Assembly (NCBI RefSeq): GCF_018398935.1
Contig: NZ_CP074694.1
Location: 5,700,001 to 5,732,000, forward strand
Direction: 5' to 3'
From: Telmatocola sphagniphila
GTDB lineage: Bacteria > Planctomycetota > Planctomycetia > Gemmatales > Gemmataceae
DNA: 32,000 nucleotides
This document shows positions 5,993 to 31,020 of the stretch, in pieces (positions within the stretch are counted from its first letter, which is position 1; each line of letters opens with the position of its first letter). Position numbers and translations under genes: made by a program. The notes beneath the pieces were generated by a model. It had not been told where the DNA came from. It was given only the letters and a program-made list of their open reading frames with translations, and did no database searches.

Positions 5993-6012
5993 TTGTATTA
6001 ACGTTAATACAA
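5993..6012. repeat. 20-bp perfect palindrome TTGTATTAACGTTAATACAA, copy A
   Basis: Read directly; the sequence equals its own reverse complement. It lies inside an ORF-poor ~970-bp stretch between two convergent genes. Confidence 0.95.
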
Positions 6013-6367
6013 CGGGTCGCACTGTGATTGCTGCAGATGGTCTTTAACCTTTGTTTGGACATCCAGGAGGTTCGGGGAATCGGAATGAGGTCGACAGAGA
6101 CTACTCGAAGGCATTTCACCCACCAAACAACCCCCACGAGATTTCGATGGTAACCCCGGGGCAGAGTAGTCGGGTGACCACTTGAAGCCGTCTTTCAGAT
6201 TCCGGCGGGACTCTTTGAGGTAAGTTCCGAAGCCTCCATATCGGTCTCACCCGGATCGAACTCGGTACAATCGAAGTATGGGCGTTGAAAAGGGGAGGGG
6301 ATCTTGAAACAAATGCACTATCAGAGTCTGGCCCGACGATTTCACAATTTCCAACCGCCCAAGCCTC

Positions 6368-6598
6368 TCAAATAGGTCCTGATGAGAATAAAGTGCTCAG
6401 GCTGATTCGAAGATTCCGGGCAATTAATCGCAGGTTCAAAAGCGAGAGATTCCGTTCCCCTCGTTCGACAGAACCAATAAAAGTGCGATGCAATTGACAT
6501 TTCTCAGCCAATTCCGCTTGAGTCCAACCTTTCTTTTCCCGAACTTCTCGGATCCGGGATCCAAGTAAGCGGAGGAATTCTTGATCGTCGAGATTCAT
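6368..6598 (-). CDS. XRE-family helix-turn-helix transcriptional regulator (76 aa from ATG 6598; alternative GTG at 6619)
   Basis: Translation LGSRIREVREKKGWTQAELAEKCQLHRTFIGSVERGERNLSLLNLRLIARNL is a textbook Cro/C1/controller-type HTH_3 pattern. The gene is divergent from the 6784 gene. Confidence 0.85.
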   Translation of the reverse strand: MNLDDQEFLRLLGSRIREVREKKGWTQAELAEKCQLHRTFIGSVERGERNLSLLNLRLIARNLRISLSTLFSSGPI

Positions 6599-6783
6599 AC
6601 TTGACGACCATCCTGCCACTACCGATGATGTGTTTAAGTATCATTTTGGAGATGTCTTTAAGTTTCCTTCGACGGATCGCCTCCGCCTAAAACCTACCGT
6701 ATCCCAGCCGGCTTCGATAAGCGAAGCCAATTCTGCACTGAGGAATTCCTTTGTTACAGGAACCTTCAGGAGATTTCGCTCGC

Positions 6784-9700
6784 ATGAAACTCACCTCCTG
6801 GCTCGAGAGAGCCGCTCGTATCCTCCTGCTGGTCTCCATCGCATTAGTCGTCGTCGGATCCTGGACAGATCTATCCCTACGCCCAGCACATCCCGAGCGA
6901 GAATCACTCATCGCATCCTTCCTTCCTCCCGCAGGTTCCGAACGGACCTATTTGGAACAACTGGCACAAAGCGATCCACAAGCCTTGGAATTCTACCTGC
7001 AGCTGACACCCACCTCCGAGCGGCGGGAAGCTTTAAGTTCCCTGGCCGAAAAAGCCGTTCTAAAGCAACCTTGTATCCGTTATGAACTCTGCAAGAGGAT
7101 CGCCCGGGAATCGGCGACGACGGCCCCCGAGAAGGCTCGATTTCTGATTGCGCAGTCGGCCTATTTGAAAAGCCTCGAACATGATCCTCAACGGCAGAAG
7201 GGATATTTGGACGCTTTGAGCAAAGATCCTCACGCCGTTCGGAACGGTTTTACAGGATGGGATCACGCCGTTCGGGCGGCTCTGGCGGATCCTGATCTGT
7301 GGTCTTATTACCAAGACGAGAAGAGCACTCAAACGAGTCCTTTCTGGCTGGATGAGGTACTACTGACGATCCTTCAGTTGACTCCAGACGGCCAGGAACT
7401 CAAGCATTCTCCGGAGTTGGTGCGAGAGATTGTTGCCGCCGCCCGGAAGTATGATCCGATTGCTCGTCGAATCGTCCGCGACCTTCAGTTAGGAGCAGAG
7501 GGAATGCTCCTGTTAATCCAATACGGACCGCTGATCGAGCAAGCCGTTCGCGAGCAGTTGGATCTTCAGGAAGTGCTCGAAATCCTCTACGCTAACCCGG
7601 GAGAATTCGAAGGGGGGGAATCGTCGGAGTTGGTCCTTCAGATGAAAGAGATCTATTCGAAGAACCCCGCTGTTTGGAATTCCGCCCGTCACTTTCCTTT
7701 ATGCTGGAAACTCCATCGCGAGTTTCCCAAGGAGGCTTCCCAACTGCTCGAGAAATTCGCGGTCGATGATATCGCGAGCTTCCTCTACCTCCACTACCCG
7801 GAGCAAATGCCCGAAGCGATCTCCGCCCTGCGGTCAACAGGAGATGCCGCTTTAGGTACGCTGAGACATTTCGCGGAAGTCCGAAGTGATAATCGGGAGA
7901 TCTTCAAGGACCTTCTGAAAAAGCAGGGATGGCGAGTGATACCCTATTATTTGAAGTACGGCGACTCGGGACTGCAGCGTCTTCGAGAAAACCCTGAAGA
8001 TACCAAGTGGCTGGATAAGGATTTCGATGCGGAGGGCCATATCGTCAATCCGGGCTGGATCGCGGATCTCCCGGTTCTCTCGGGTCCAGTAATGGCTTTT
8101 CGGCACGGAATCGAGGGGACACTCGAATGGGAGGAGGTCGGCTGGGCCGCTTTAGATTTGACAGATGCGGCTGCCTTGGTGGGTACCTCCGGTGTTTCGT
8201 TAATTTGGTCAGTCGCCAAGAATTCCGCCAAGATCGGCTCCAAGAAAGCTCTGAAGCGTGTGTTACCCCGGGAGGCTCGGGAGATCCTGCTTCAAGAAAC
8301 GAAATCTATAACAGCCAAACCAGCGATCAGTCGAGTCGCTAAGCGTCAGGCGTTCCGCGATAAGTCGCTTCCCTCTCTACTTCGGACGGCTTCGCAACCG
8401 ACGGGATCGGGAAAGTACCTACTCTCGCACGGAACGCATCTGATTCTTCCTCAGTTGAGTATGTCGCTGCAGACCGTTCTCAAAAACATTCAGCTAGCCG
8501 TTCAGAAAGTTGAAAAGACAATTCCAAAAATCCGAGATCTTCGGCAGAGCCTTTCCCCTGCGAATTCCCGGGCGTCGGCGCGTTCCGAAAATCTTCCTTC
8601 GGAGGAGTTTCTGCTATATCTGAAGCACCCCGATCAACTAGTGGTGCTCCAAACGCAGCTATTCGATGTCTCCCTCCTGAGTCGTTGGAATTCGCCTTCG
8701 GAGTTTCTGGAGCCAGGCTCTACCGTAAACTTCGGCACAGATATCAGCGCCACGGAATTGGCCGAAGAGATTCTCTCGTTTTGGAGTCCGGCTTCCAGGG
8801 TGTTTCCCGTTCAAGACGTAGAGAACCCAGTCAGAAAAATAGGCTTTTTTCTCGCGCTGGGCTCGCTCACTTTGTTTATCCTAGTCGGAGCAATTCGATA
8901 CCATTTAGTTCGTCCTTGGGCACCGGATCGGATCTTGATCGGTTCGATGATTTTGTGTTTCGTCGTACTCGGTTTGAGCATCCGAGTCTTCTTTAGTGCT
9001 TCCTCGCCTGCCAGTTCGGAGTTGACTCTGGCTCGCCTGAAACAGGATTCCCTCTGCTGGGAGCAGCGATTGGCCGAAGTGTTGGACAGTTCCGACCCGA
9101 CGGTTTTGAGAGAACGAGATCTGTTGGTCGAAACCGTTCTGCAAGATTATCGCCAGCAATTATCGGAAAGCTCCGGTCGGTCCGATCTCCAAAGAAAAGA
9201 ACAGTCGCTCCGGCTTCTCAAACGGTTCTTCCCTATTCTCGCGAGAGCCCAAGTGGAGAATTTGATCGCTGAAGTCCATCGGCTTCGAGAGGAGCAGGAT
9301 TATAAGAAGGTGCAGTCGGAATTCGAAAACGGAATTTCTTCCTTCAAGGAATCGGCCCAGCGATTTCTATCCGAATATCCCCGTTCCGAATCCAAAAAGG
9401 AAGTCCACAAATGGATTAATGAAAAGATCGGTAAAGAGGTTGGGGACCTTCGAGTGAAGATTCAGCAGATCGAGAATAGCAATCTCTCGGGAATCGCGGA
9501 ACGAGCCAAAGAACTGGCGAAACTCTGCGATCAGCTTTCTCGGACGGATCCCGAACGAAATCGCATCCAATCCGCCTTGAAAGTCGCACACCTATTGATG
9601 AGTGAAAAAGAGTTCACCCTGGCTTTGCGTAATTCTGGCGAGTTCCAAGTCGCGGAATTCCACCGGGTCGTGATTACTTGCGGAGACGAAACGGTTCATT

Positions 9701-10005
9701 CTTGCACCAGCCCTTCGCGAGTCCAAATTCAAGATTGGACGGACGAATTCAAGCTGAAGTGGCAGCCGGAAAAATCAATCAAAATCGAGCTTCGCCTCGG
9801 CAGTACCGTAATATTTTCCAGATCCCTTTGTGCCGAGACTGAAGTGAAGGGAGAGTGGTCTATCTTGGACTTGAATGGCAAGAAAGAACTCGAAGTCAGA
9901 TCGGCTCGATTCCTGGGAACTCCCTATGTCACATTGGAGATACTGGATTTCACCTCGGAGGAGGAAAAAGCCTTTAGAACCTATTTCCTCGGCAAGGATT
10001 GGTAA
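6784..10005 (+). CDS. Large (1,073 aa) membrane/coiled-coil protein of unknown function
   Basis: Uninterrupted ORF; ATG 6784 with AGGAG at 6768-6772. N-terminal anchor ILLLVSIALVVVGSW, then a long helical region. Two internal hydrophobic helices (IGFFLALGSLTLFILVGAI / ILIGSMILCFVVLGLSIRVFF), about 200 aa of charged heptad-like sequence, and a C-terminal beta-looking domain. No motif I can name. Confidence 0.8.
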   Translation: MKLTSWLERAARILLLVSIALVVVGSWTDLSLRPAHPERESLIASFLPPAGSERTYLEQLAQSDPQALEFYLQLTPTSERREALSSLAEKAVLKQPCIRYELCKRIARESATTAPEKARFLIAQSAYLKSLEHDPQRQKGYLDALSKDPHAVRNGFTGWDHAVRAALADPDLWSYYQDEKSTQTSPFWLDEVLLTILQLTPDGQELKHSPELVREIVAAARKYDPIARRIVRDLQLGAEGMLLLIQYGPLIEQAVREQLDLQEVLEILYANPGEFEGGESSELVLQMKEIYSKNPAVWNSARHFPLCWKLHREFPKEASQLLEKFAVDDIASFLYLHYPEQMPEAISALRSTGDAALGTLRHFAEVRSDNREIFKDLLKKQGWRVIPYYLKYGDSGLQRLRENPEDTKWLDKDFDAEGHIVNPGWIADLPVLSGPVMAFRHGIEGTLEWEEVGWAALDLTDAAALVGTSGVSLIWSVAKNSAKIGSKKALKRVLPREAREILLQETKSITAKPAISRVAKRQAFRDKSLPSLLRTASQPTGSGKYLLSHGTHLILPQLSMSLQTVLKNIQLAVQKVEKTIPKIRDLRQSLSPANSRASARSENLPSEEFLLYLKHPDQLVVLQTQLFDVSLLSRWNSPSEFLEPGSTVNFGTDISATELAEEILSFWSPASRVFPVQDVENPVRKIGFFLALGSLTLFILVGAIRYHLVRPWAPDRILIGSMILCFVVLGLSIRVFFSASSPASSELTLARLKQDSLCWEQRLAEVLDSSDPTVLRERDLLVETVLQDYRQQLSESSGRSDLQRKEQSLRLLKRFFPILARAQVENLIAEVHRLREEQDYKKVQSEFENGISSFKESAQRFLSEYPRSESKKEVHKWINEKIGKEVGDLRVKIQQIENSNLSGIAERAKELAKLCDQLSRTDPERNRIQSALKVAHLLMSEKEFTLALRNSGEFQVAEFHRVVITCGDETVHSCTSPSRVQIQDWTDEFKLKWQPEKSIKIELRLGSTVIFSRSLCAETEVKGEWSILDLNGKKELEVRSARFLGTPYVTLEILDFTSEEEKAFRTYFLGKDW

Positions 10006-10284
10006 GGATTTTCGGATTACTTTACAGGATCGGAAGTGATCCCTAGCTCGGAGAAGAATGAGTAGCGGGATCGATGATTATTACCAAACCCAGTGGGGCG
10101 AATCAGTTCTGGCTTTCTAGTTGCTCAACGTGTTTTTACCGATTCCTGACGCCCGCGAGTTTCGAATGCTGGCAGCAAGGTTTCTAAAATTGAGCTCCGA
10201 TAGAGGCGAATAGCAGACCGAGGGCTAGGGGATTATTGGCGAAATTCGAGACACCTGCAGCAGGGGCATTTAGGAAAGCGATCT

Positions 10285-11406
10285 ATGAGTTCCATTTACC
10301 GACTTGAAGATTTGTTACCGCGCTGGCAGGAAAGGATGGCTCCACTAGTTGCGGACCAAACGGAGGCTTTGGTCGAAGAAATGCTCCGGCCGATGCCGAC
10401 CTGGATCAACTCCGCTGACCCCGCGCAGCAGTATCAGCTGGAAGATACCCTGCGTCGAAAAGCCGAAGAATTGGCAGTTACCACTCTACTGCCCCAGGGG
10501 CTGGATTGGCTAAACCAGCAAAATTTCGGACCTTCGCCCGCAAAGTCAGAAAGAGTCAAGATCGAACTCCTTTCGGCGATTCGTCAGAGAATTCCCGCTT
10601 GCCAACTGTTCCTTCCCAAGCCGACTCAGGAAATCCCGACGCGATCCTGGGTATACTCGGCCGCCTTGGGGGCCGGAATTGGATGCCTCCTCCTCACGCC
10701 GTTGAGTTTACTGTTACTAGGAGAGCGGGAACCCGGTTTAGCGTTAGGAGGCGTCGTAGGAGCGGGTTCGGCTGTCGGTGCTATCGGTTGGCTCTCGCGG
10801 CAATCGAAATTCCAACGTTACGCGGAATTCATCCTGGCGGCGACGACACTGACTTCCGGGGTAGTAGGACTCTATAGGTTAATCCGCCGGGACTCTTTAG
10901 GATTGCTGAAAACGGCCGGCTGGTTCGGAGCCGGCTGGCTATTAGTAACCTTGGCCCGACCGAGAAAGGTCGGGTTGTCCCATTCGGAAAGCGGGGAGAT
11001 CCTCCAACCGCAGGTTCGAGCCTACTTGAATCATCTTGCCGACCTGGTTTTAAGTTTGTGCTGGTCGCACCCCGACCGAGAGGACAAAATTCTCTCATCC
11101 TCCTCGGAATCGAACGGAATTCCCGAATCGATTGCCGACGCTCTGGGAGTCATTCGCCAAATCTGCGACGATCCCCAATCCGCCGAAAAACATTTATCAG
11201 GTGCCGTCCGGATTTTGATGCAGCGCATTCGCGACCAGGGATACGAATGGCGGACGATTCCTTCCGGTACGCTCTATTCCGACGATCTGAAAAACTTGTT
11301 CGAAGTATTCGGGATGGTCGAGATCGGTCAACCTGTGGAAACTTTGAATCCGGCCTGGGTCCATCGGGGGCAGGTACTTAAAGCGGGTCTCGTACGAAAG
11401 ATCTAA
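10285..11406 (+). CDS. Four-TM membrane protein with a GrpE-like C-terminal domain (putative nucleotide-exchange partner of the downstream Hsp70-like ATPase)
   Basis: Hydrophobic block at aa ~120-225 (about 4 helices). The tail RILMQRIRDQGYEWRTIPSGTLYSDDLKNLFEVFGMVEIGQPVETLNPAWVHRGQVLKAGLVRKI follows the GrpE C-terminal pattern (G.e.i...G..FDp......g.v.....pG....g.vL+.A.V.V). The stop lies 21 nt before the next gene's ATG. Confidence 0.8.
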   Translation: MSSIYRLEDLLPRWQERMAPLVADQTEALVEEMLRPMPTWINSADPAQQYQLEDTLRRKAEELAVTTLLPQGLDWLNQQNFGPSPAKSERVKIELLSAIRQRIPACQLFLPKPTQEIPTRSWVYSAALGAGIGCLLLTPLSLLLLGEREPGLALGGVVGAGSAVGAIGWLSRQSKFQRYAEFILAATTLTSGVVGLYRLIRRDSLGLLKTAGWFGAGWLLVTLARPRKVGLSHSESGEILQPQVRAYLNHLADLVLSLCWSHPDREDKILSSSSESNGIPESIADALGVIRQICDDPQSAEKHLSGAVRILMQRIRDQGYEWRTIPSGTLYSDDLKNLFEVFGMVEIGQPVETLNPAWVHRGQVLKAGLVRKI

Positions 11407-11427
11407 TCGATTCCTGGGAGAATAGAT

Positions 11428-13554
11428 ATGGCGTCTTCACTTCCCAACGGCATGAAAGAACTGCCACTTTTGGGATACATAGGAATCGATTTTGGAACCA
11501 GCACTACCCATATTGCAGTCTGTTATCTCGACGGCAATACGGTTCCGCAGGCAGTTCCTCTGGCCGGTAAATCCTCGATTCTTACCTGTCTGTTATTGAG
11601 AGAAGCCAACTCCAACGGCGAGGCTGTCGTCGCCTATGGGGAAAAGGCTCTGAGGACTTGGTTCACTCTGAGTGATTCAGAACGAAAGAATCATCGTTTC
11701 GCAGTCGGTTTCAAACCCGATATTATTAGTGGCTCGCGGGCGGGAATTGCTCAAAGCGACTCCAGAGCGTTTTTGACCAAATGCTTTCAGGCCGTTCGAG
11801 AGAGTGGCGTAGTTCGAGCTCTGGGCCGAGAAGAAGGAATGCCGGTCGTGATTGGCGTTCCGGCCGAAATCAGCGAACTGCAAAAGCGTACGACGGCCGA
11901 GCTGGCGGAACAGGCCGGGTTCGGAAAGGTGAACTCTTTAGAAGAACCGCTCGGGGCCTTAGCCTATCATCTGGCGGATGGCTCGGTATCGGGAGCGGAA
12001 GCCCGTACCGGGGTCTTGGTGATCGATTTTGGTGGCGGGACTCTGGATATCGCTTGGCTGAACTCCTCAAAAGGAATGGCAGCTCCTTGGGGAGATCCCC
12101 TTCTGGGAGGCCGGTTATTCGATGACATCTTTTATCAGTGGCTTCTTCAACAGAATCCGCAGATCGAATTATCCGATGCCGATCAATTCTTCGTTTGGCA
12201 AGCGACTTGTCGCGAACTCAAGGAAAAGTTCAGTACCCACTGGCAGGACGAATTGGATAGCTCCCAAAAGCCCGCTCTTGAGGCGATTGAATACCAAGAT
12301 CTTTTGGCCCTTCCCGGACGCCGGTTCGCAGAGTTTCGAGGAAGTGTACCAGAGTTCTTGAATCGAACTCAGCGATACCGGCCTAGCTCTGTCGCCCAAG
12401 AGTATTTTTCGAAAGTTGATTCCCGGTTGCGGGATTTAGGAAAAGAGAAGCCGGTCGATCTCCTGGATTGGATTCGAAGAGAACTCACGCGCGGGTTCAA
12501 CCAGAATCAACATCCCCTGGCGTTGATTATCTTGACCGGCGGGAGCTGTAAGTGGCCGTTCATGCGAGACTTGGCCGTCGACGCCTTCGGCCTCAAGCGG
12601 GAGTGTGTCCGACGGTCTCCCGATCCGGAAACAACGATCGGTTCGGGATTGGCAGTTTACAACGTATTGAAGCATCGGAATGCCCTGAAACGGCAAAAGT
12701 TACACGAAGAGTTCCCGACGTATAAAGAAAAATTCCAGAGGAGGGTCGAGGAGAAAATCGACGAGTTTACCCGGCAAACCGCTATGGCTGTCGTGCTCCC
12801 TTTGATGAAGCAGGTCGAATCTCTCTTTCTCAAGTGGTATAGCGAAGGGGGGGCCCTGAAATCGGTACAGGAAAACATCCAGACATTTGTTGAAAACTAC
12901 GATGTCAAAAACACATTACAAGCCCGCGACAAACTGCTTGCTGAAGACTTGATGCGATTGATTCGAGATTACCTGGGGATCTGGCTCAAGGAGCATTCGA
13001 TCCACCGCAAAGTCGAGGATTTGCTTCCTCCCGGAACGCTCACGGTTCCTGTTCCAGAATTAGGGAGTTTTACCAATGAGATCACCAAAATCATTTCTAA
13101 TCTCGTCGTAATCGGACTGACCGGAACCATTTTTGGAATCGTGTATTTGGCCGCCCATGGCACGCATATTCTGGCGCATCCCTTGACCGGATTGCCGATC
13201 GCACTCGCTTCGGCACTCGCGGCTGGCCTCGGTTTCCAGCGAATCGAGGAACCACTCCGCCGCAAAGTCCTCGAGTTTGAGTGGGGTCAAAACTCTTTGA
13301 AGGCTCTCAAGCTCGCACTTTCTGAGAATCGATTGAAAGAGAAAATCGCCGAAAGTCAGCAAAAAGCGATTCAGGAGATCCAGGATCTCTTGAAGGGAGC
13401 AGGTCCTCGCGATCAAGCTCCGACTGCGGCAAGACCATCTTCCTCCTGGAACAACCTACAAGAACTTCGGGCCCGCGTGACCGGGCAGTTTGAAGATATT
13501 GTCAACAAGGTGATCGAAGATCTGGGAGTACTCGAAGAGATTCGACGAGATTAG
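11428..13554 (+). CDS. Hsp70/actin-fold ATPase (DnaK-like NBD) without a canonical substrate-binding domain, with a C-terminal TM hairpin and coiled-coil tail
   Basis: GGGAG at 11416-11420, 7 nt before the ATG. NBD motifs in canonical order: IGIDFGTSTTHIAV, VIGVPAEISELQKRTTAELAEQAGF, VLVIDFGGGTLDIAWL, IILTGGSCKWPFM, TTIGSGLAVY. These are followed by helical sequence and two hydrophobic helices (IISNLVVIGLTGTIFGIVYLAA, LTGLPIALASALAAGLGF). Confidence 0.9.
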   Translation: MASSLPNGMKELPLLGYIGIDFGTSTTHIAVCYLDGNTVPQAVPLAGKSSILTCLLLREANSNGEAVVAYGEKALRTWFTLSDSERKNHRFAVGFKPDIISGSRAGIAQSDSRAFLTKCFQAVRESGVVRALGREEGMPVVIGVPAEISELQKRTTAELAEQAGFGKVNSLEEPLGALAYHLADGSVSGAEARTGVLVIDFGGGTLDIAWLNSSKGMAAPWGDPLLGGRLFDDIFYQWLLQQNPQIELSDADQFFVWQATCRELKEKFSTHWQDELDSSQKPALEAIEYQDLLALPGRRFAEFRGSVPEFLNRTQRYRPSSVAQEYFSKVDSRLRDLGKEKPVDLLDWIRRELTRGFNQNQHPLALIILTGGSCKWPFMRDLAVDAFGLKRECVRRSPDPETTIGSGLAVYNVLKHRNALKRQKLHEEFPTYKEKFQRRVEEKIDEFTRQTAMAVVLPLMKQVESLFLKWYSEGGALKSVQENIQTFVENYDVKNTLQARDKLLAEDLMRLIRDYLGIWLKEHSIHRKVEDLLPPGTLTVPVPELGSFTNEITKIISNLVVIGLTGTIFGIVYLAAHGTHILAHPLTGLPIALASALAAGLGFQRIEEPLRRKVLEFEWGQNSLKALKLALSENRLKEKIAESQQKAIQEIQDLLKGAGPRDQAPTAARPSSSWNNLQELRARVTGQFEDIVNKVIEDLGVLEEIRRD

Positions 13555-13891: not shown

Positions 13892-13911
13892 ACGTATTAA
13901 CGTTAATACAA
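13892..13911. repeat. Palindrome family copy B (18/20 match; 16-bp perfect core GTATTAACGTTAATAC at 13894-13909)
   Basis: Read directly. It ends 1 nt before the stop codon (13913-13915) of the minus-strand Rep-like gene. Confidence 0.9.
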
Positions 13912-13912
13912 C

Positions 13913-14746
13913 TCATTTCCGCTTACCGCGGAAACAGTTGACGCGTCGAAACATGTGCATGCCTTGAAGCGCATCTAAATAGAAAGCCAAAGCCCTAGGG
14001 TTGTCCATCGTTAAAAGGCTCTGCTTATAACTGAATATGTTTGCCACAAACGATTGCAACTCAGAATCTTTTCGACTCATCAGCTGCAAAAAGTTTTCGT
14101 GCTCCAGATCGCGACGCACCCATCGAGGCGATTCGACCATTGTATCCTTGACGAGTATTACGCCCGAACGATGCACCGCGACAGAATCCTTGGAGAAACT
14201 CTCCGAAGTCAGCACCGCGCCGCCGGCAGCATAAGCATCGAACTCAGAATACAAAGTCATTTTGTCGCGGTGCACGTGTCCGTCGATAAAGTCAACAAAT
14301 TCACGAGCCAACTGTCCGGACCAGATGATGGGATTACTAGGCACATACGAAGGAATCGACACACCAACTCGGTAACCCAGCAAAACCATTTGCCGGTTTT
14401 GACGATCAGAAAGTAGTTTCTGACAGGTCCGGTAAACGGGAGCTACAACTCGTCTCGCGTAACAAAACGGACAGAACGACGCAAAGTTACAAACACGCAA
14501 AGGAGCCATCAAACAGCTAGCACCAACCGGAGGACAATTCACAGCGAAATTGTAACGAGACTCGCTAGAAAAACGAGAGAGCAACTGCGTGTCGCGAAGC
14601 CGGCGAAGTTGCTTTCGATACTTCCCCTGGATAGCGGACGTATCTTTAGCTACGCCCGCGATCGATGTCATCATCATACGTATTAAAGGGGAAAATTTTC
14701 GCGACGTAAACCGAAAAGTTAACGTTGGGAAATCAGAATCAGCCAT
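13913..14746 (-). CDS. Hypothetical protein; candidate rolling-circle-type replication initiator (weak, motif-level only)
   Basis: ATG 14746 with GAGG 7 nt upstream (longer ORF runs to 14794). CNFASFCPFCYARR resembles the C..CPxCxWRR zinc motif of pC194/pUB110-type Rep proteins. A hydrophobic strand (MVLLGYRVGV) lies about 25 aa later, where motif FLTLT sits in those Reps. A candidate Tyr motif is FSYKQS. The HUH motif is not convincing (GHVHRDK). Confidence 0.65.
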   Translation of the reverse strand: MADSDFPTLTFRFTSRKFSPLIRMMMTSIAGVAKDTSAIQGKYRKQLRRLRDTQLLSRFSSESRYNFAVNCPPVGASCLMAPLRVCNFASFCPFCYARRVVAPVYRTCQKLLSDRQNRQMVLLGYRVGVSIPSYVPSNPIIWSGQLAREFVDFIDGHVHRDKMTLYSEFDAYAAGGAVLTSESFSKDSVAVHRSGVILVKDTMVESPRWVRRDLEHENFLQLMSRKDSELQSFVANIFSYKQSLLTMDNPRALAFYLDALQGMHMFRRVNCFRGKRK

Positions 14747-14890
14747 GTTAAGACCTCGAAGAGTATAGAAGAAATATTTTTTATAGCTTGCCACTATTTA
14801 TTATTTTTGTTTTACTAAGCACCGCAATAAACCACAAAAAATTGGCCGTTCCAGATGCTAAGTAAACCAAGTTCTGAGTTTGAGGTTAGT

Positions 14891-14926
14891 TTCTTCTCTT
14901 TCTCTTTCTCTATAGAAAGAGAAGAA
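14891..14926. repeat. 13-bp perfect inverted repeat (TTCTTCTCTTTCT / AGAAAGAGAAGAA) with a 10-nt spacer, polypyrimidine/polypurine
   Basis: Arms at 14891-14903 and 14914-14926, read directly. It lies in the region upstream of the Rep-like gene. Confidence 0.9.
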
Positions 14927-14970
14927 ATGCCGCCGCCCTTGCGGGCGTCGTGGGCGAAAGGCATTTTTAT

Positions 14971-15054
14971 TTCCAAAAACCAAAACCAAACGAAACGAAC
15001 TTGCGACAAAAGCGCAGACCGAGTTCCGACAAAGCGCAGAAGCGAGTTCCGACA
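14971..15054. promoter_or_regulatory. Origin-like or regulatory tract: phased A-tracts followed by about 2.2 tandem copies of a 23-bp unit
   Basis: CCAAAAACCAAAACCAAACGAAACGAAC (14972-15000), then CGACAAAAGCGCAGACCGAGTTC (15004-15026), CGACAAAGCGCAGAAGCGAGTTC (15027-15049) and CGACA (15050-15054). Confidence 0.6.
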
Positions 15055-15071
15055 GTGTGAGTGGCGCGCGT

Positions 15072-15091
15072 TTGTATTAACGATAATACGC
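15072..15091. repeat. Palindrome family copy C (17/20: TTGTATTAACGATAATACGC), nested in a longer imperfect GC-rich palindrome
   Basis: Read directly. Flanked by GTGAGTGGCGCGCG / CGCGCTCAC arms. It ends 2 nt before the stop codon of the alpha-CTD-like gene (15094-15096). Confidence 0.8.
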
Positions 15092-15093
15092 GC

Positions 15094-15366
15094 TCACGCT
15101 CGTCGACGAAGTTTGCGGCGCCAGTTTGCCGGATAGTCGACACCGTGTCGCGACAGAGTTTGTTTGAGTTCTCGAAAAGCGCTATCGCCGAAGTTCGGTA
15201 TGGTTCCGAAGAAACTCGGTTTCTGTTGCAGCAGCTGGTCGACGTAAAGGATATGGTGCTTCTCGAGCGCGTTGGCGATGCGTACCGGCAGGTCCAGTTC
15301 TGCGATAGCGCGGTCCTGCGGTTTGACTTCGATGATCGGCGGACGTCTTCGTCTTGCTTTCGACAT
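15094..15366 (-). CDS. Stand-alone RNA polymerase alpha-subunit C-terminal-domain (alpha-CTD)-like DNA-binding protein (90 aa)
   Basis: IAELDLPVRIANALEKHHILYVDQLLQQKPSFFGTIPNFGDSAFRELKQTLSRHGV aligns position by position with E. coli RpoA CTD [56 protein letters not shown]. Confidence 0.8.
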   Translation of the reverse strand: MSKARRRRPPIIEVKPQDRAIAELDLPVRIANALEKHHILYVDQLLQQKPSFFGTIPNFGDSAFRELKQTLSRHGVDYPANWRRKLRRRA

Positions 15367-15368
15367 TT

Positions 15369-15569
15369 TTAATCCTGTCCGATGATGTGTTTTTCAACTA
15401 TCCTCTCACACTTTCTCAGCTTTTTTATCTTTTCCAAATCTACCCAAGTTGCGCTAGAGTTTTTCTCTTTTACAATTTGCGGACAACTTTTGCCTTTAGC
15501 GTCTAGGTCGAGAAGAGTTTTGATCGCTGAGTCTACTGCGAGTTCTGAGAATCCGTAGACCTTTTTCAT
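15369..15569 (-). CDS. Small hypothetical protein (66 aa from ATG 15569), translationally coupled to the alpha-CTD-like gene
   Basis: Its TAA (15369-15371) lies 2 nt from the ATG (15364-15366) of the downstream gene. No recognisable motif. Confidence 0.45.
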   Translation of the reverse strand: MKKVYGFSELAVDSAIKTLLDLDAKGKSCPQIVKEKNSSATWVDLEKIKKLRKCERIVEKHIIGQD

Positions 15570-17300
15570 TGCGATTCGAAGCAGCACAAGTTTTGCCGGA
15601 TTTTCTTTTTTGTCGAGTGCCCTTGCTGGTGTTCCAACTGTATTAGCTCCCCGCAGGATAAAACTCCGACTCTGTCGCTCAGTCCCGAGTTGTTCGAGTG
15701 CGGATTTAGATTACGCGGATCGTACGGCTCGATGATGATATCTCTGCCGATCTGCGGGGCGTTTCAGAACCTGCGAATACAGCCATAGTTGTACTTTCGT
15801 TATAATGTTAATAAAGACGTACAAGCTCTTCAACACCTTAGGCGAGTAGAAGGGTCGGATAAGGGGCTCCGAAACGATTCTGGTTGATTTTTTGGCTATT
15901 AGCGTTGATTTAGAAAGCGATCAGCCGTCCGATTGTACGACAAACAGTTAATTATTTAGATGAAGGTTTAAATATGTATCTGAAAGAAGTGTTGACAGAT
16001 CGTTTCCAGCGTTTTTTGTTCCTGGTTATTTTCCCGCCGCAGCTTCTGAGGAAGAGCAGCCCATCCAGGTTGCTTTCGTGTACGCTGGTGCAGAGCTTTT
16101 TGGCAGCGAGAATCCAGGTATCTTGCAATCGTCGAATCGCATCTCGGCCGAGTCCTTGTCGCACATCGGAATCTTTGACGACCAAGCGTCGAATGCGAAC
16201 GGCAGCTTCTACCTACTTGTATATCACCACGCCTCTAATAGTGCTTCCTACTTTCAACAATCGAACTAAATGATTTCGACTTTTTGTCCGCTGTGCCGTC
16301 AGGACTTTGGCGCACCATCGCTCTCCGGGAAAAGCGTCTTACAAACTACGTGCGGTTGCTTCCGCTTCGGCTTGCTCGATCCAGATAAAACTCAAATCGT
16401 CCGTTGTTATCCTTTGTGGGGCCTGAGTAGGATTTTCGAGGAGTTTTTCTAAATCGAACTCCTCCATAGCAATCCGAGCTAACTTGGATAATTTATCCGC
16501 CATCTGATTCCATACGAGCAACTCTCGTCTATCCTAGTTCCAATTCAGAATTAATTCGTTTCTGTAATATACGTCGAACAGATTCCAGATCGCCGCGTTT
16601 TTCATTCCGCCGCGATCTCGATCATTGCCGCTATCGGCGACGTTCGCACTATCCGTGAATATCTGAACTTGCAAGAGGCGGCGTACGCCAGTCTCTTCTC
16701 GTTCTCTGTCGAGACTAGCGATCAGACCTGCGGGATGGCCGGGTGCTGGAGTTGGCCGGTGATGCGGGCCTCGTTGGCGAACCGGCGGCGGCACCGAGAT
16801 TACTCTCATTCACGAGAGCTTCGAGAATATCGAAAGTCAAAAGGGCCATTGCCACGGCTGGACGGGATCGTTGCAACAGTAGGCTGCTTTGCTGGAAAAA
16901 GAATGGTCGAAACGATCGAAATAAGTCTAACGACGGCCTGATTGGGTCCTCCGGGAGTTATCTAACTCCTGGCGGACGGACGATGATCCGCAGTCTGCTC
17001 TCACGCCTTCACAACGCATCCGCTAACTTCGCTAAAGAGCTTTCAATGCGATAATATTTTTGAATTTTGCATTTTTTTGAGATTGCTTCCTTTCCAGTCG
17101 ATCATTACACTTTGAGACTCTCTCCAAACCATTAAGGCGAGCAAGTTCTGGTTCTCGCCAGCCATGGTTATTCCCGTTCCTTTTAATCGAAGATAGAACT
17201 GATAAGCGACCTTCCCTGATCGGCGATTCGGACGATAGGGATGGGAGCCCAATGCCCTGTTTTCAACCAAAGAAATCGAGTATCGAATAAAGGCGTATCC

Positions 17301-22708: not shown

Positions 22709-22806
22709 AGGCCGCGCCGCCCCTTCAACGCTTCGCAACCCGGACCAGCTTCGCATTTCTAGGTCGCAAGAGAAATTTCGTAATCTAAGAGTTGCTAAAA
22801 AGAATC
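22709..22806. repeat. Conserved intergenic motif, copy 2 (core ACGCTTCGCAACCCGGACCAGCT plus box CTAAGAGTTGCTAAAAAGAATC)
   Basis: Core at 22728-22750 versus 138-160 (22/23 identical). Second box at 22785-22806 versus 236-257. The spacing between the two boxes differs between copies. Confidence 0.7.
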
Positions 22807-24269: not shown

Positions 24270-25685
24270 GGCTCTTCCGTTTTTAGGCGCAACTCTCGGC
24301 GAATCGGTCATTTTGGGATAGATTGCAATTGAGAGTACTTTTCCTGGTTCACGGAAGAGCCTATGACGACGACTACCATTGCCATAGACATGGACATCCC
24401 TGCCGGAGTGAGCGTTGGCGAATACGAACGCATCGACGGGGGCCACGCCTTTCACGTGAGTTGGCAGTTGCCCGACAATCTTTGTTGCGAGACATGCCAG
24501 CGAGAGTCTCGGCTTCAATTGGTGGAGAAGAACAAGTTTCTGAGCATCCGCGATCTGGATTTGTGGGGTAAGCCGAGCTTTTTCGTGTACCAGGAGTTGT
24601 ATCACCGCTGCCCGTCGTGCGGTCACCGTCAATCGCTGTTGCCGCCGTTCAAGCGTCGGGATGTGAAATATACGTTTCGCTTCGAGGAGCAGGTGCTGGT
24701 CAGTCTGATCGGGAGCACAGCCGAAGACGTGGCAGTGCGTTTGGGGATCGCCGCGGAGACGGTGGAACGAATCGTCAAGAACCGGATAGAGGACGCCAAG
24801 GCGAAGCAGATCGATCCGCAGCGGAAGATCGAGCGTTTGGGTCTGGATGAGATCAGCAGGGGCATAAGGGATATGCGACCATTCTCACAGACCTGACGAA
24901 TGCGGAGCGTCTGGAGATTCTCGCTTTGTCCAAGGGGCGTGACGAAGCAGCGGGGCAAGCGTGTTTGACGCGTTTGTCGGCCGAACAACGGTCGGCGGTG
25001 CGTTGGCATCATACGGACATGAGCCTGGCGTATTTGAAGGCTTGCGGCGTGCATTTACCCAACAGCCAGTCGGTAATAGATCGCTTTCACGTCGCCAAGA
25101 AATTGGGTGAGGTGGCGGACGATCTGCGAAAAAAAACTATCGAGCCTACAAGCGAAGTTTGAGCGGGGAAGCCCGCAAGAAGCTGCGTTCTCAGATGCAC
25201 GACTTCCGGCGTCGTCCCGAAGGATTTGAATCCGGAGCAGGTCCAGGCCCTCGAGGATTTGTTCGAGAAGGTGCCTCGGTTGGGAGCGATCTATAATCTG
25301 CGTTGGGAGGCGACCAAGATCTTCGATAGTGCCCCCAACCGAGCCGAAGCCTCGCGATTGCTGGAGGATTGGATCGCCCAAGCCCGTGAGACCGAGTTGG
25401 ATTGGGAACCGATCATCACCACGCTCAAGAACAACAGGGAGGGGATCTTAGCCTACTTCGAGGAACGCAAAAGCAGCGGCCCGGTGGAAGGTCTCAATAC
25501 CAAGATTCGGGTAGTGCTACGCCGAAGTTATGGAATTCAGAGTCTAACTACGCTCTGGACGAGAGTACTCCTGGACGTGAATTGGGCTGCGAAAAAATTA
25601 GGGCCGACCATTGCAGAGATTCGCAGCTTCGTCAACCAGATCCAGAAGCATTTCTCTAGATGCTACACCTAGAAACGGAAGAGCC
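24270..25685 (+). mobile_element. ISL3-family insertion sequence, copy 1 (1,416 bp, transposase degenerate)
   Basis: IRL is GGCTCTTCCGTTTTTAGGCGCAAC. IRR on the other strand is GGCTCTTCCGTTTCTAGGTGTAGC. 8-bp direct repeat TTGTTTTC at 24262-24269 and 25686-25693. Confidence 0.9.
24363..25672 (+). pseudogene. ISL3 transposase, copy 1, broken into three ORFs
   Basis: Relative to copy 2 it has a 7-nt deletion after GATGAGATCAGC (~24860), the shared A8 run (25129-25136) and an extra A in CCCGAAGGATTT (~25220). Confidence 0.85.
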
Positions 25686-26880
25686 TTGTTTTCGCATATT
25701 CACTTATACTAGACGTGTGAGCGTCGCGTGAATTATACAGACGCAATAATTTTTCCTCAAGTTCTTCGGGGCCGGTATCTTTCCGGAATTCCGCCAAACA
25801 GTATTGCAACATAATCACTTGATAAGTATAAATTCCAGGGCGGAGCAGCCATTGAATTAAAGCAGTTGTGAGCAAATTATCGCTTTTCATAAACCATGTA
25901 ACATGAATTTTTTTAAGGATTTCAGGAAGAAAAGGGTGCACTGATTTCGTCTCAACAAGACTTTCGTAAAATTCCAACGGTACAGAAGCATCAAAAACCA
26001 GATCGAATATTTGGTCTTCTATCGTGTCTGATGAGAATTGAGAAAGTATATTGTCAAATTGAGAAAAATAGTCGATTACACTAACGTTCATAGACTCACT
26101 CAATCAGAGGATTTTAGGGAAAATTAGTTTGTTCAAAAAGTGTCGATCATTACTCGATATTTATTAGTTTATTGAGAGAATATTTCTATTCATCTTTTGG
26201 ATTTTGTAATAGTCAAAAATATCTGAATTTTGAATCGCGGGTACTACAGTTGACGAAACCGGCGAATTTTAAAAAAAACATTCGTGGCACCTTTGATGGA
26301 AAAAGTGAACACAAAAAAACCAACTATCTTTTTCAGACACTTCGCGATAGTCGCTCCAGTTAACTTTCGATGGAATATTCCAATTTCCGCATTGTCACCT
26401 GTAACTGACACCTCATCTTCAATCTTACGATGTACTGCGACCACCATTTTCTCGCTCCTCCCGACTTCCATTTGTGGTCAAAATTACTCCCCAATTTATC
26501 GCTCAGCAAAAGTTGCAACTACCAGCCTAGTTTTTACTTGGTGTGATCACGTCGGTCACGCCGTTTTTCTTTGATTGCGTCCTCGAGGGAACTAACTTTA
26601 TTTCCAGGCTATCTGAGTAGCCGACCACGAAGTATTCGTTGTTCAGCTTCTTGTCCTCAACCTTAACAAATTCATTTTAGAACCTGTAGTTACCTTTGAG
26701 CGACGAATTTTTCAGGTTTTCAGTGGTTACAAGTGGGTTAAGACATCAAAAATTTGAATTTTGTGTAATAAAGCATAGTATTTATCGAGAAATCCAAATC
26801 AAAAATGAACAATCCTCTCTCGATGTGCAAATCACTTTTCGCGTTGATATAGCTGGAACTCTAGATCCGTCATCAGCTTG

Positions 26881-27320: not shown

Positions 27321-28039
27321 ATGCTGTAATTCGGAATCCGATAACAAATGAGCAGCAGATGGTTTACATCCTCAATCTTTAACAGCGACGTTAAACGACT
27401 TCGCCAGTCCGGACCGGAAAAATTCCTGGAACAAATATAAATCCGAAAAAGCCTGCTGCCAATGTAGGAATCGATTCGATTACAGTCCCAATTCTTCCTA
27501 TCGTTGAAGCGCCTCTTCCTGCCCAGACGGGTGGCGGAGAAGTGGGTAATGGCAATCTTGGATATGGATTCACGGTTATCGGTAATATCGGTAAAGGATT
27601 ATTTATTCCTGGATAAAATGGGAGTAAGGGATCAAGATGATTTGAAGGACCATTTGGAGCTGGCAATGGCCGACCGACGGGTACAGGCGCTCCAGGCTGT
27701 AGTATATCTGGTGGAAATAGTTCGTGTATAATATCTTGGATATCTTGCGGATTTTTAAATTAAAAAATTTACAAAATATTGCTAACATAAATGATAGTAA
27801 TGTTAATATCTTTATCTCTTGTTTGATAGGCCAAAGATGCGCGTCATTAAGCCCTCCCATTTTCTGGCCTTCTCTATAGCGATTTAAAATACTATCTATA
27901 ACCTCTGAAATCGCTTCGTCGATCTTTTTGCAAGACCAATTTTCCGGTAAGCATTTATGCCTGGGGTTAAAAACATAATCTTCGAGCAGTTGAATTAAAG
28001 AATTTCTCCCTCCTAATCCAGATCGTTCATTATAATGCA

Positions 28040-29463
28040 GGCTCTTCCGTTTCTAGGTGTAGCATTCAGAGAAATACTTCTGGATCTGGTTGACGAAGCC
28101 GCGAATCTCCGCAATGGTCGGCCCTAATTTTTTCGCTGCCCAATTCACGTCCAGGAGTATTCTCGTCCAGAGCGTAGTTAGACTCTGAATTCCATAACTC
28201 CGACGTAGCACTACCCGAATCTTGGTATTGAGTCCTTCCACCGGGCCGCTGCTTTTGCGTTCCTCGAAGTAGGCTAAGATCCCCTCCCAATTGTTCTTGA
28301 GCATCGTGATGAACGGCTCCCAATCCATCTCGGTCTCGCGGGCCTGGACGATCCAATCTTCCAACAGTCGCGAGGCTTCGGCTCGGTTCGGGGCACTATC
28401 GAAGATTTTGGTCGCCTCCCAACGCAGATGGTAGATCGTTCCCAACGAAGGCACCTTCTCGAACAAATCCTCGAGGGCCTGGACCTGCTCCGGATTCAAA
28501 TCCTCGGGACGACGCCGGAAGTCGTGCATCTGAGAACGCAGCTTCTTGCGGGCTTCCCCGCTCAAACTTCGCTTGTAGGCTCGATAGTTTTTTTTCGCAG
28601 ATCGTCTGCCACCTCCCCCAATTTCTTGGCGACGTGAAAGCGATCTATCACCGACTGGCTGTTGGGTAAATGCACGCCGCAAGCCTTCAAATACGCCGGG
28701 CTCATGTCCGTATGATGCCAACGCACCCCCGCACGTTGCTGGGCCGACAAACGCTCCAAACACGCTCGCCCCGCTGCTTCGTCGCGACCCTTGGACAGAG
28801 CCAGAATCTCCGGACGCTCCCCATTCGTCAGGTCCGTCAATATTGTCGCATATCCCTTATGCCCCTTACGCAGGCTGATCTCATCCAGACCCAAACGCTC
28901 GATCTTCCGCTGGGGATCGATCTGCTTCGCCTTGGCGTCCTCTATCCGGTTCTTGACGATTCGCTCCACCGTCTCCGCGGCGATCCCCAAACGCACTGCC
29001 ACGTCTTCGGCTGTGCTCCCGATCAGACTGACCAGCACCTGCTCCTCGAAGCGGAACGTATATTTCACATCCCGACGCTTGAAGGGCGGCAACAGCGATT
29101 GACGGTGACCGCACGACGGACAGCGGTGATACACCTCCTGGTACACGAAAAAGCTCGGCTTACCCCACAAATCCAGATCGCGGATGCTCAGAAACTTGTT
29201 CTTCTCCACCAATTGAAGCCGAGACTCTCGCTGGCATGTCTCGCAACAAAGATTGTCGGGCAACTCCCAACTCACGTGAAAGGCGTGGCCCCCGTCGATG
29301 CGTTCGTATTCGCCAACGCTCACTCCGGCAGGAACGTCCATGTCTATGGCAATGGTAGTCGTCGTCATCGGCTCTTCCGTGAACCAGGAAAAGGGTACTC
29401 TCAATTGCAATCTATCCCAAAATGACCGATTCGCCGAGAGTTGCGCCTAAAAACGGAAGAACC
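28040..29463 (-). mobile_element. ISL3-family insertion sequence, copy 2 (1,424 bp)
   Basis: Same termini as copy 1, with one mismatch in IRL (GGTTCTTCCG). 8-bp direct repeat ATAATGCA at 28032-28039 and 29464-29471. Confidence 0.9.
28053..29368 (-). CDS. ISL3-family transposase (438 aa if a -1 shift occurs at the A8 run; otherwise two overlapping ORFs)
   Basis: Family patterns present: zinc fingers (CCETC, CPSCGH), LGLDEISLRKGHKGYATILTDL, HHTDMSPAYLKA, IDRFHVAKKLGEVADDLRKK. The frames overlap at CGAAAAAAAACT (run at 28588-28595 on the plus strand). A -1 slip gives ..DLRKKNYRAYKRSLSGEARKKL... Confidence 0.8.
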
Positions 29464-29778
29464 ATAATGCAGGCGTGCATTTGGTGTGTTTATATCCTCT
29501 ATATACAGTCCAAATTGATCCAAAATATATGATGCACGCCTACTTGCTAAACCTAGAGGATCAGTCTCATTTAACGGTGAATTAAGCTCAAATGAGTAGT
29601 AATTGTTATTTTGCAAAATCAATCCAATTGGATCATTTTGCATCCAACGCTCCAAAGTTGGGCTATACATTCGATTTCTAAAATCGTAGAGACTAGTAGC
29701 TTCAAGCTCTCCGCCCTGGTGCAAAAACTTCCAATTATAAGCACTGCTGCTTATCGATCCCCAGGAGGAGTTCAAATA

Positions 29779-30693
29779 AGAAGCTCTAACAAAACCCCTG
29801 CTTGGTATGGCATTTGCGCTCCAGAATCTAGCCCGGATTCAGGAGCGCTGTCATGGCTCGTTCAGAATTACCCGATGAATTTTGGCAAGAGATTGAACCT
29901 TTACTTCCTCCCGATACGCTTCCCGGCGAGCAAGGGGGACGGCCGCGCATACCCAATAAAACGGCCATGCGAGGCATCTTTTACATTCTGACCACCGGAA
30001 TCCGCTGGGAGGATATCCCTCGCGAAATCGGATGCAGCGGCATGACTTGCTGGCGTCGTCTCAGAGACTGGCAGAAACTCTCCTTATGGGATCAATTGCA
30101 TCGTTTGATTTTGGCGCAGTTGCGTAAGGCCGAGAAGATCGACCTCTCTTTGGTCGTCGTCGATAGCACGATTTCTCGAACCGTTGGCGGGGGAGAGCAG
30201 ACCGGCCCCAACCCTACGGATCGACGTAAACCCGGCACTAAACAGCACTTAATTGTCGATCGCAACGGTATTCCCCTGGAGATACGCGTCACCGGAGCTA
30301 ATCGCCACGATGTGAGGGAGATCATTCCTCTGGTCATCAATATACCAGCGATAGGAGGAAAGCCCGGTGCTCCGATTCATAAGCCCAAGGTCGTGCAAGC
30401 GGATCGAGCCTACCACGATCAATGGGTGGATGCGTTGCTCTATTGGATGGGCATCATTCCGCGCATCGCTAAGCGAAATACTCCTCACGGCAGCGGCTTG
30501 GGGAAAACTCGGTTCGTGGTCGAGCGAACCATATCTTGGATTCGAGGGTTGCGGAGATTGCGAGTGAGGTTCGACCGCCACGATTACATTTACCAAGCCT
30601 GGAATTCTCTCGCCATGGCATTTATCTGCTGGAGAACTTTAATCGAATAACCCAATTGCAATTTTTTAAAAACAGGGTTTTGTTAGAGGTTCT
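29779..30693 (+). mobile_element. IS5-family insertion sequence (IS427-like size class, ~915 bp), apparently intact
   Basis: Left end AGAAGCTCTAACAAAACCC. Right end on the other strand AGAACCTCTAACAAAACCC (18/19). Possible TA duplication at 29777-29778 and 30694-30695; the exact ends are uncertain by a few nt. Confidence 0.75.
29853..30650 (+). CDS. IS5-family DDE transposase (265 aa, single ORF)
   Basis: LPDEFWQEIEPLLPP..GRPRIPNKTAMRGIFYILTTGIRWEDIP..CWRRLRDWQ (DUF4096-type N-terminus), then VVDSTISRT.., ADRAYH.., RFVVERTISWIRGLRRLRVRFDR (DDE_Tnp_1-type). Confidence 0.9.
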   Translation: MARSELPDEFWQEIEPLLPPDTLPGEQGGRPRIPNKTAMRGIFYILTTGIRWEDIPREIGCSGMTCWRRLRDWQKLSLWDQLHRLILAQLRKAEKIDLSLVVVDSTISRTVGGGEQTGPNPTDRRKPGTKQHLIVDRNGIPLEIRVTGANRHDVREIIPLVINIPAIGGKPGAPIHKPKVVQADRAYHDQWVDALLYWMGIIPRIAKRNTPHGSGLGKTRFVVERTISWIRGLRRLRVRFDRHDYIYQAWNSLAMAFICWRTLIE

Positions 30694-31000
30694 TACGCTT
30701 TTGTGTTTGATTTGCCTGGACGCATTAATTTTCATTCAGACATGGATAAAAGTATGGCAGTATTCGCCTCTGCGAAGATTCGTCGACTCGTGGCCTTCAG
30801 ACATCACCCTTGAGTCCTATATGGCAGTGAAATTCAAGCCGAAATCGGGCTGCCCTTGTTTCGGAAACAGAATCAACTTTACTACCCCAGAGTCATCGCC
30901 CTGGAGAGCAAAAAAGCTTTACGCGCTGGTCTACCTGGAGTGCCTGGTGCATTCCCTGTCCTATCAGATCATCGCGACGAAAGCAGTTTCGCCCGAGAAG

Positions 31001-31020
31001 TTGTATTAACGTTAATACAA
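31001..31020. repeat. 20-bp perfect palindrome TTGTATTAACGTTAATACAA, copy D
   Basis: Read directly. It lies about 55 nt downstream of the stop of minus-strand ORF 31074-31367. Confidence 0.95.

Follow-up and report, generated by a model that had tools for sequence, protein, structure and literature searches.

Here we focus on a 20-bp palindrome that occurs four times in a stretch of the chromosome of the planctomycete Telmatocola sphagniphila. The stretch, called the window throughout, is 32,000 nucleotides long, and one of its products, a 277-aa protein, is identical to KIH39_22840 of this organism, whose chromosome measures 6.59 Mb. The left part of the window carries a Ser/Thr kinase gene, an XRE gene that is divergent from three large genes, and an island of small genes. 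The right part carries a gene for a PrsW-like protease, two inverted ISL3 copies that form a composite element, an IS5-family element, and an oxidoreductase gene. The palindromes are spread over this arrangement, with two of them on either side of the gene for the 277-aa protein, which has a zinc ribbon of four cysteines (Cys4). We develop the reading that the palindromes may be binding sites of a protein encoded by a phage-derived module in the small-gene island.

Two copies are perfect palindromes without a mismatch to the 20-mer TTGTATTAACGTTAATACAA, namely Copy A at 5993-6012 and Copy D at 31001-31020. Copy B at 13892-13911 (ACGTATTAACGTTAATACAA) has two mismatches and keeps a perfect 16-bp core (13894-13909), and Copy C at 15072-15091 (TTGTATTAACGATAATACGC) has three. 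When the 20-mer was used as a search pattern with mismatches allowed, no match was obtained in 100 dinucleotide-preserving shuffles of the window, and the four copies are the sole perfect palindromes of at least 14 bp within it. The four sites are real and non-random, which bears out the recurrence reported in an earlier reading of this DNA (the original prediction). That reading also listed a degenerate relative at 15808-15845. The site in question, TTGTAC-N24-GTACAA, actually lies at 15789-15824, upstream of the operon formed by a 72-aa open reading frame (ORF) and an RNA polymerase alpha C-terminal domain (alpha-CTD)-like gene, and has six mismatches to the 20-mer. An unrelated site at 26076 scores six mismatches as well, and this doubtful relative is therefore indistinguishable from chance.

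Copy A is located in a 970-bp gene-free gap with convergent genes on either side, one at 4973-5395 on the plus strand and the XRE gene at 6368-6598 on the minus strand, and lies 356 nt from the XRE stop codon on its 3' side. The end of Copy B is 1 nt from the stop codon of the ORF at 13913-14794 on the minus strand, the Cys4 gene that had been labelled Rep-like; like Copy A, it sits between convergent genes. A distance of 2 nt separates Copy C from the stop codon of the alpha-CTD-like ORF (15094-15366, minus strand); this copy is also the distal boundary of the 300 bp that precede the Cys4 gene. Copy D occupies a gene-free gap of about 845 bp, some 305 nt to the right of the IS5-family element (29777-30695), and on the other side of this gap a gene for an FAD/NAD-oxidoreductase runs off the end of the window. 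The description of the copies as mostly hard against the 3' ends of genes is thus correct for Copies B and C but not for Copies A and D, that is, for two of the four. Copies A and D are found in non-coding DNA 8 and 16 kb from the Cys4 module, and their identity reaches 21 nt when they are read as an inverted repeat. The DNA flanking the four copies shows no mutual similarity, so they are not relics of duplicated DNA, an outcome that the original prediction had considered. In the variant copies the substitutions fall in one half-site only and are non-compensatory, leaving pairs broken. Folded as RNA, the 20-mer would give an AU-rich hairpin of about -4.3 kcal/mol without a U-tract, and the predicted RNA folds of Copies B and C do not contain it.

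The genes next to Copies B and C make up a small module. The Cys4 zinc-ribbon protein of 277 aa is encoded at 13913-14746 on the minus strand, with an alternative start at 14794. The alpha-CTD-like protein (15094-15366, minus strand) is a stand-alone polypeptide of 90 aa with Arg-rich tails at both ends. It is preceded by the 72-aa ORF at 15369-15587 on the same strand, whose stop lies 2 nt ahead of the alpha-CTD-like start codon and which has no family match. A 91-aa RNase H-like fragment follows at 16534-16809, also on the minus strand, and is homologous to proteins of 216-269 aa from the same phages that carry the Cys4 homologues described below. The presence of this truncated phage RNase H gene in the small-gene island identifies the island as a decayed phage-like module. 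Between the Cys4 gene and Copy C, the non-coding region at 14795-15071 has an origin- or operator-like layout: a 24-bp AT-rich palindrome (TTCTCTTTCTCTATAGAAAGAGAA) at 14900-14923, an A/C-rich tract at 14976-14990, and a 23-bp tandem repeat present 2.2 times at 15004-15054.

An exhaustive HMMER search with the 277-aa protein recovered about 40 distant homologues of 270-310 aa. Two alignments, of 35 and 53 sequences, are concordant: C71, C86, C92, P93 and C95 are invariant within the motif NCPPxGV...C...CPFCWAR, and R98 and Y240-P241 are nearly so. No family member matched a Pfam, NCBIfam, PHROG or PADLOC model. Across the 53 sequences no His, Asp or Glu is conserved, which leaves the family with neither an HUH motif nor any other recognisable metal site, and the HVH sequence of the window protein is private to it. 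With the alignment as input, AlphaFold2 gave a confident model, with a predicted local confidence (pLDDT) of 82.7 and a predicted fold score (pTM) of 0.85, while a single-sequence run reached a pLDDT of 31. The top matches of this model to viral models (Foldseek against BFVD) are unnamed, with E-values from 2.5e-7 to 1e-3. The named ones, at E=0.02-0.1, include microvirus replication initiators, an inovirus replication protein, HRPV1 protein 1 and parvovirus NS1, and the matches to PDB folds are all weak (E>0.27). The Rep-like label may therefore be kept for the fold at most, and weakly. An identity as an HUH Rep was rejected, the HUH motif being missing and tblastn against plasmids and phages giving no match. 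As a separate observation, ten stretches of a 1391-aa protein (P0123) match residues 18-67 of the Cys4 protein, which indicates that its N-terminal helical segment occurs elsewhere as a repeat unit.

The Cys4 homologues reside in phage contigs of 45-235 kb, together with genes for terminase, HNH, RNase H, an SbcC-like ATPase and helicase. In the window and at nine other loci (L040, L042, L047, L052, L054, L055, L058, L071 and L072), the Cys4 gene has an alpha-CTD-like gene no more than about 3.3 kb away, and often next to it. The two genes are a conserved pair in large phages. The window alpha-CTD-like protein aligns to the C-terminal domain of E. coli RpoA with E=1e-10, and the DNA-contact positions VRxAN and PNxG of RpoA are kept in it. 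Nothing relevant came out of a text search of the literature for the 20-mer and for homologues of the alpha-CTD in phages. Three of the phages (L047, L071 and L072) share a longer gene order, in which a terminase gene is followed at some distance by a dCTP-deaminase-like gene (DCD), the alpha-CTD-like gene, two to six further genes and the Cys4 gene; PfkB- and cytidylyltransferase-like genes come after it.

The evidence that carries our interpretation is found at the 3' end of these phage genes. In about ten of 24 lineages an AT-rich palindrome of 14-22 bp, peculiar to the lineage, is present at or just past the Cys4 stop codon, usually with one to three extra copies a few kb away. One case is L047, where the locus forms the end of a 213-kb contig of 63% GC. 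Within 16.6 kb there are four copies of the motif TTAAAAAGTACTTTTTAA, with the perfect palindrome CTTAAAAAGTACTTTTTAAG, against none in shuffled sequence. All of these copies sit at gene junctions and overlap a stop codon, in one case that of the Cys4 gene, and one copy lies 8 nt ahead of the alpha-CTD-like gene. Yet another observation on this contig is that one copy precedes by 39 nt a 636-aa gene (L047 11914-13883) with a weak Cas12f1/TnpB-like domain. At L040 the site at the Cys4 stop is ATTATCACGTGAAAAC, with four family copies (three in L042). At L058 it is GTAATTAGCGCTAATTAC, and one further copy upstream means that the Cys4 gene is bracketed, as in the window. The sites at the Cys4 stops of L055 (CTCAAAAGCGGTTTTGAG; one further copy, 6.6 kb away), L056 (CCAAAAAGGACTTTTTAG; two further copies), L071 (TCAAATTCAAATTTGA; one) and L072 (TCTAAATTATAGAATTTAGA; one) are likewise repeated. 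For AAAAAACGTATTTT of L053 no further copy was found, and for CCAAAAGCGCTTTTTG of L046 none was seen in a contig of 1.2 kb. An exact 18-mer scan of IMG/VR for the L047 palindrome gave two unrelated singletons only, and a consistent palindrome upstream of the alpha-CTD-like genes was not found beyond L047 and L040.

To count such sites, a palindrome was defined as at least 14 bp long, at least 60% A+T, with no more than one mismatched pair and its centre between -15 and +30 of the stop codon. It was present at six of 22 Cys4 stops and at 10 of 484 other ORF stops (Fisher p=2e-5), several of these ten control hits being the same palindromes reached via spurious or neighbouring ORFs. With the window removed, the Cys4 count is five of 21 (p=1.7e-4). 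In the phages the site is often 0-30 nt ahead of the next start codon, and the genes downstream of it are non-homologous between phages, which implies that the palindrome travels with the Cys4 gene. Direct repeats of 39 nt are found upstream of the Cys4 gene of L042, in a place equivalent to that of the window repeats.

Two further arrangements near Cys4 genes were seen. A conserved hairpin, (T)AACCCC/GGGTCCCC-N3-4-GGGGTT(A), precedes the gene by 60-250 bp in divergent phages (L040 ~9905-9925, L042 ~9890-9910, L054 9924-9940, L055 9295-9312 and L058 ~9745-9765) and is followed by AT-rich sequence; an AACCCC-N-GGGGTT hairpin is absent from the window. The homologue P0124 has a chromosomal context (L050) that is planctomycete- or verrucomicrobium-like. 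Here the 14-mer CTAGAAACTGGCTT occurs three times, at 2035, 5582 and 6814. The gene starts at 6251, and between about 7 and 115 bp ahead of this start the half-site CTGCTTAAA forms two different dyads.

Our favoured reading, which we hold with moderate confidence, is that the palindromes are duplex-DNA binding sites for a dimeric protein of the phage-derived island module, used either as operators or as initiator boxes. A dimeric protein acting on duplex DNA is suggested by several properties taken together: the two-fold symmetry of the site, its constancy within a lineage and difference between lineages, the changes confined to one half-site, the weakness of the hairpin, and the linkage to a pair of putative DNA-binding proteins. 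A two-fold-symmetric protein from the Cys4/alpha-CTD-like module would dock on the four palindromes as double-stranded DNA. Because the site tracks the Cys4 gene, the Cys4 protein is the first candidate for the binder, and it would act with or instead of the alpha-CTD-like protein. The latter is the second candidate, since the minor groove of AT-rich DNA is what an alpha-CTD binds, and inverted A-tracts make up several of the phage dyads. Binding would punctuate the module, with Copy B marking the 3' end of the Cys4 gene and Copy C closing the repeat-rich region upstream of it. As operators the sites would control transcription; as initiator boxes they would form an origin beside the initiator gene. 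The operator option draws on the presence of several copies a few kb apart at gene junctions in the phages, and the origin option on the replication-type module, the site at an initiator-like gene, and the tandem repeats and second palindrome upstream. Of the two, the operator is placed somewhat ahead. In this respect the conclusion is closest to one proposal of the original prediction, an operator for a dimeric regulator encoded nearby, except that the Cys4/alpha-CTD-like pair is favoured as its source and the XRE half of the proposal finds no support. The XRE protein was rejected as the binder, the region upstream of its gene (6599-6783) having no copy of the motif and only TTTAAGT direct repeats.

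Binding palindromes of phage-encoded proteins are a known kind of element. In about ten lineages we find the properties of phage operators and initiator boxes, namely a dyad, several copies per element, a lineage-specific sequence, and a link to the gene of a putative DNA-binding protein. In phage lambda, the iterons bound by O have dyad symmetry and lie inside gene O, and the origins of P2 and phiX174 lie inside gene A. The window sites resemble these in having a symmetric site at an initiator-like gene, AT-rich surroundings with nearby repeats, a lineage-specific sequence, and a gene within a replication-type module. They differ in that the copies are dispersed over kilobases and that the Cys4 protein, which lacks an HUH motif, shows no sequence relationship to O of lambda or to A of P2 and phiX174; a role as an origin is putative. 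A second comparison is with phages whose genomes carry one short motif at gene junctions that delimits modules. In the PeSL cassettes of T4-type phages an early promoter is joined to a stem-loop, and the centromere repeats of N15 need SopA/SopB. The window sites share the placement with both, but are perfect palindromes unlike PeSL cassettes, and no ParA/ParB gene accompanies them as would be expected from N15. A parS site was rejected on similar grounds, since no ParA/ParB domain is present in the ORFs scanned and the sequence differs from the parS consensus, which is TGTTNCACGTGAAACA.

Several points weigh against the binding-site interpretation. In other organisms, Phycisphaerae among them, the exact 20-mer serves as a LacI-type operator, so a host regulator is possible. 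A palindrome at the Cys4 stop was found in only about ten of 24 lineages, with L042, L048, L050, L052 and others lacking it, and the enrichment test was devised with the pattern already in view. Copies A, B and D of the window have no gene close behind them. The predicted binder is a candidate named through gene linkage alone, and the scan for degenerate copies covered the 32-kb window. At about 11 conserved columns, moreover, the window Cys4 protein does not carry the consensus residue; it may be in decay, and the two perfect copies would then need another explanation.

A more far-reaching version of this interpretation, which we put forward tentatively and consider doubtful, is a three-part system not described before. 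It would consist of the Cys4 protein with a degenerate Rep-like fold, an alpha-CTD mimic, and a lineage-specific palindrome that punctuates gene modules. The phage would bring its own contact of the alpha-CTD-plus-UP-element type, and at the marked junctions this contact would either redirect or insulate transcription or else link it to the start of replication; the repeated sites would also serve as joints for module exchange. The protein pair and its co-varying palindromes are undescribed in Pfam, NCBIfam, PHROGs and PADLOC, and the text search gave no relevant match. A parallel is found in the late promoters of P2 and P4, where sites of the form TGT-N12-ACA are bound by a Cys4 zinc-finger activator (Ogr or Delta) that contacts the alpha-CTD of RNA polymerase. 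The window motif reads T-TGT-N12-ACA-A and is present in about four copies in a phage-sized region, and a Cys4 zinc protein and an alpha-CTD are again involved. However, Ogr has 72 aa and works with the host alpha subunit, whereas the window Cys4 protein is unrelated to it in sequence and the element encodes an alpha-CTD-like protein of its own. Since the dyads of the other lineages do not fit TGT-N12-ACA, the match to Ogr sites is a lead only and may be a coincidence.

Among the alternatives, the one that survives best overlaps in part with the initiator-box half of the favoured reading. The Cys4 protein could be a rolling-circle-type initiator that nicks at or beside the palindromes, starting at one copy and stopping at the next, so that segments would be released as circles. 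Such release is known from CTX-phi, which forms circles between tandem origins. The microvirus and inovirus replication proteins among the Foldseek neighbours of the AlphaFold2 model are in keeping with this, as are the company of RNase H, SbcC-like and helicase genes in the phages, the palindrome beside the gene, the repeat-rich upstream region and the near-invariant Tyr240. We nevertheless consider nicking unlikely because no catalytic motif is conserved: the 53 sequences share no His, Asp or Glu, and the HVH of the window protein is not a family feature. The PDB fold matches all exceed E=0.27, no Pfam Rep family is matched, and several copies per 16-20 kb in double-stranded DNA phages of 50-230 kb would chop the product into sub-genomic pieces.

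Quite unlikely, in our judgement, is that a LacI-family repressor of the host, with its gene elsewhere in the Telmatocola genome, uses the 20-mer as operator and that the island copies are chance captures or decoys. It deserves attention on account of what the same sequence does in other organisms. An exact 18-mer scan of one genome per species (185,579 species, 596 Gb) found nine loci in unrelated phyla, with at most two per genome, the Telmatocola chromosome not being among the results. A 20-mer scan of metagenomes found eight loci, none related to the window and with at most one exact copy per contig, and the matches to a 16-mer in viral contigs were chance singletons only, without the TT..AA flanks. 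At the nine genome loci and several of the metagenome loci the 18-20-mer lies in promoter regions, where a second or third, degenerate copy is found nearby. The neighbouring genes encode LacI-family regulators (L028, L030), a sugar-binding protein, Gfo/Idh/MocA oxidoreductases and xylose-isomerase-like proteins. Paired or triple operators made of the 20-mer and close variants were also seen next to LacI-family and sugar-related genes at L023, L028, L030, L034 and L036, in Paenibacillus and uncultured bacteria, a well-defined regulon motif of LacI type with no relation to the window. The conclusion from these neighbourhoods is that in those organisms the 18-20-mer serves as an operator of the LacI class; it is a 20-bp dyad centred on CG.

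The window site shares with the LacI-family operators the same 18-20-mer, the central CG and the 20-bp dyad. A palindrome of 16-20 bp with a central CG is the general form of a LacI operator, and the exact 18-20-mer, in what look like functional operators, is found beside LacI genes in Paenibacillus and an uncultured bacterium, beside Gfo/Idh/MocA genes in Phycisphaerae, and in other genomes. The resemblance ends at the sequence, as carbohydrate genes and placement in promoters are both missing. No LacI gene was detected in the window by tblastn with two LacI proteins, and no sugar-catabolic gene adjoins any copy. Copies B and C instead abut the 3' ends of genes, Copies A and B lie between convergent genes, and four copies in 25 kb among orphan, insertion sequence (IS) and phage-like genes do not make a regulon pattern. 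The phage parallels have quite different sequences at the same position. By our own arithmetic, nine 18-mer hits in 596 Gb are about the number expected by chance, and the identity with the operators is therefore treated as convergence. For readings made from sequence only this is a caution, since the identity of the 20-mer with LacI-type operators would by itself point to the wrong system.

We judge it equally improbable that the palindromes are recombination or attachment sites, with Copies A and D as the attL/attR-like borders of a 25-kb integrated element and the inner copies as secondary sites delimiting exchangeable modules, much as in pdif modules or the PeSL cassettes of T4-type phages. 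The perfect copies do bracket all of the orphan, phage-like and IS genes, with ordinary genes outside (the kinase on the left, the oxidoreductase on the right), and they share the 21-nt identity as an inverted repeat. In addition, the four sites split the region into the XRE-plus-three-gene cargo, the Cys4 gene and the remainder. Yet no gene for an integrase, an Xer-like or a serine recombinase is present among the ORFs scanned, a fully symmetric 20-mer offers no asymmetric crossover spacer, there is no tRNA, and the phage copies occur inside co-linear gene arrays and not at element ends. The original prediction had considered a recombination or partition-type site marking mobile DNA; the module is indeed phage-derived, but no recombinase or ParB gene was found for the other part of that proposal.

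Weakest of all, and very improbable, is a species-wide repetitive extragenic palindrome (REP) or a hairpin at RNA 3' ends, acting as terminator or stabiliser, both of which had also been listed: all four copies are extragenic, and two directly follow stop codons and lie between convergent genes, but exact 18-mers number at most two per species in the 185,579 genomes and exact 20-mers at most one per metagenome contig (counts that cover exact copies only), and an AU-rich stem of about -4 kcal/mol without a U-tract or compensatory changes, a terminator scan at background and the lack of an Rfam match speak against the hairpin and agree with the original view that this is not a classical terminator. 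The position of Copies B and C on both sides of the Cys4 gene does recall the REP-associated tyrosine transposases (RAYTs), whose genes are flanked by extragenic palindromes. The flanked gene here is not a Y1/HUH transposase (PF01797) and has no Pfam, NCBIfam or PHROG match, the check for a RAYT gene found none, and nothing in the scans for exact copies, whose results did not include the Telmatocola chromosome, points to a high copy number. The palindrome is also perfect and AT-rich, unlike the imperfect GC-rich hairpins with a conserved tetranucleotide that characterise REPs.

The remaining features of the window concern its mobile and cargo genes. The XRE protein has 76 aa, and its best PADLOC match is a restriction-modification control protein (E=6.6e-19). 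Two of its three divergent partner genes, for proteins of 1073 and 373 aa, have no family match. The third encodes a 708-aa Hsp70/actin-like ATPase, whose C-terminal hydrophobic segments appear by eye to be membrane-spanning. This unit of the XRE gene and three genes (6368-13554) fills exactly the span between Copies A and B, and it has the look of an operon for cargo or for a conflict system. The inverted ISL3-family copies at 24270-25686 and 28039-29463 are 94-99% identical, each with its transposase split into a helix-turn-helix ORF and a DDE ORF, and the composite element that they form encloses 2.35 kb of low-GC DNA. The IS5-family element at 29777-30695, which has terminal inverted repeats of 21 bp, adjoins it. 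A direct repeat of 35 nt, CCCC(C/T)TC(G/A)ACGCTTCGCAACCCGG(G/A)CCAGCT(A/T)CGC, is present with 89% identity at 130-164, outside the island, and at 22720-22754, inside it, 22.6 kb apart. Scans of the window for tRNAs and for Rfam families were both empty.

If the favoured reading is true, it would unite three things: an unnamed and widespread Cys4 family of large phages, a phage-encoded copy of the alpha-CTD, and palindromes that co-vary with them. It would also provide a directly testable protein-DNA pair, the specificities of which could be swapped between lineages, and it may reveal a new route by which phages imitate the contact between the alpha-CTD and the UP element.

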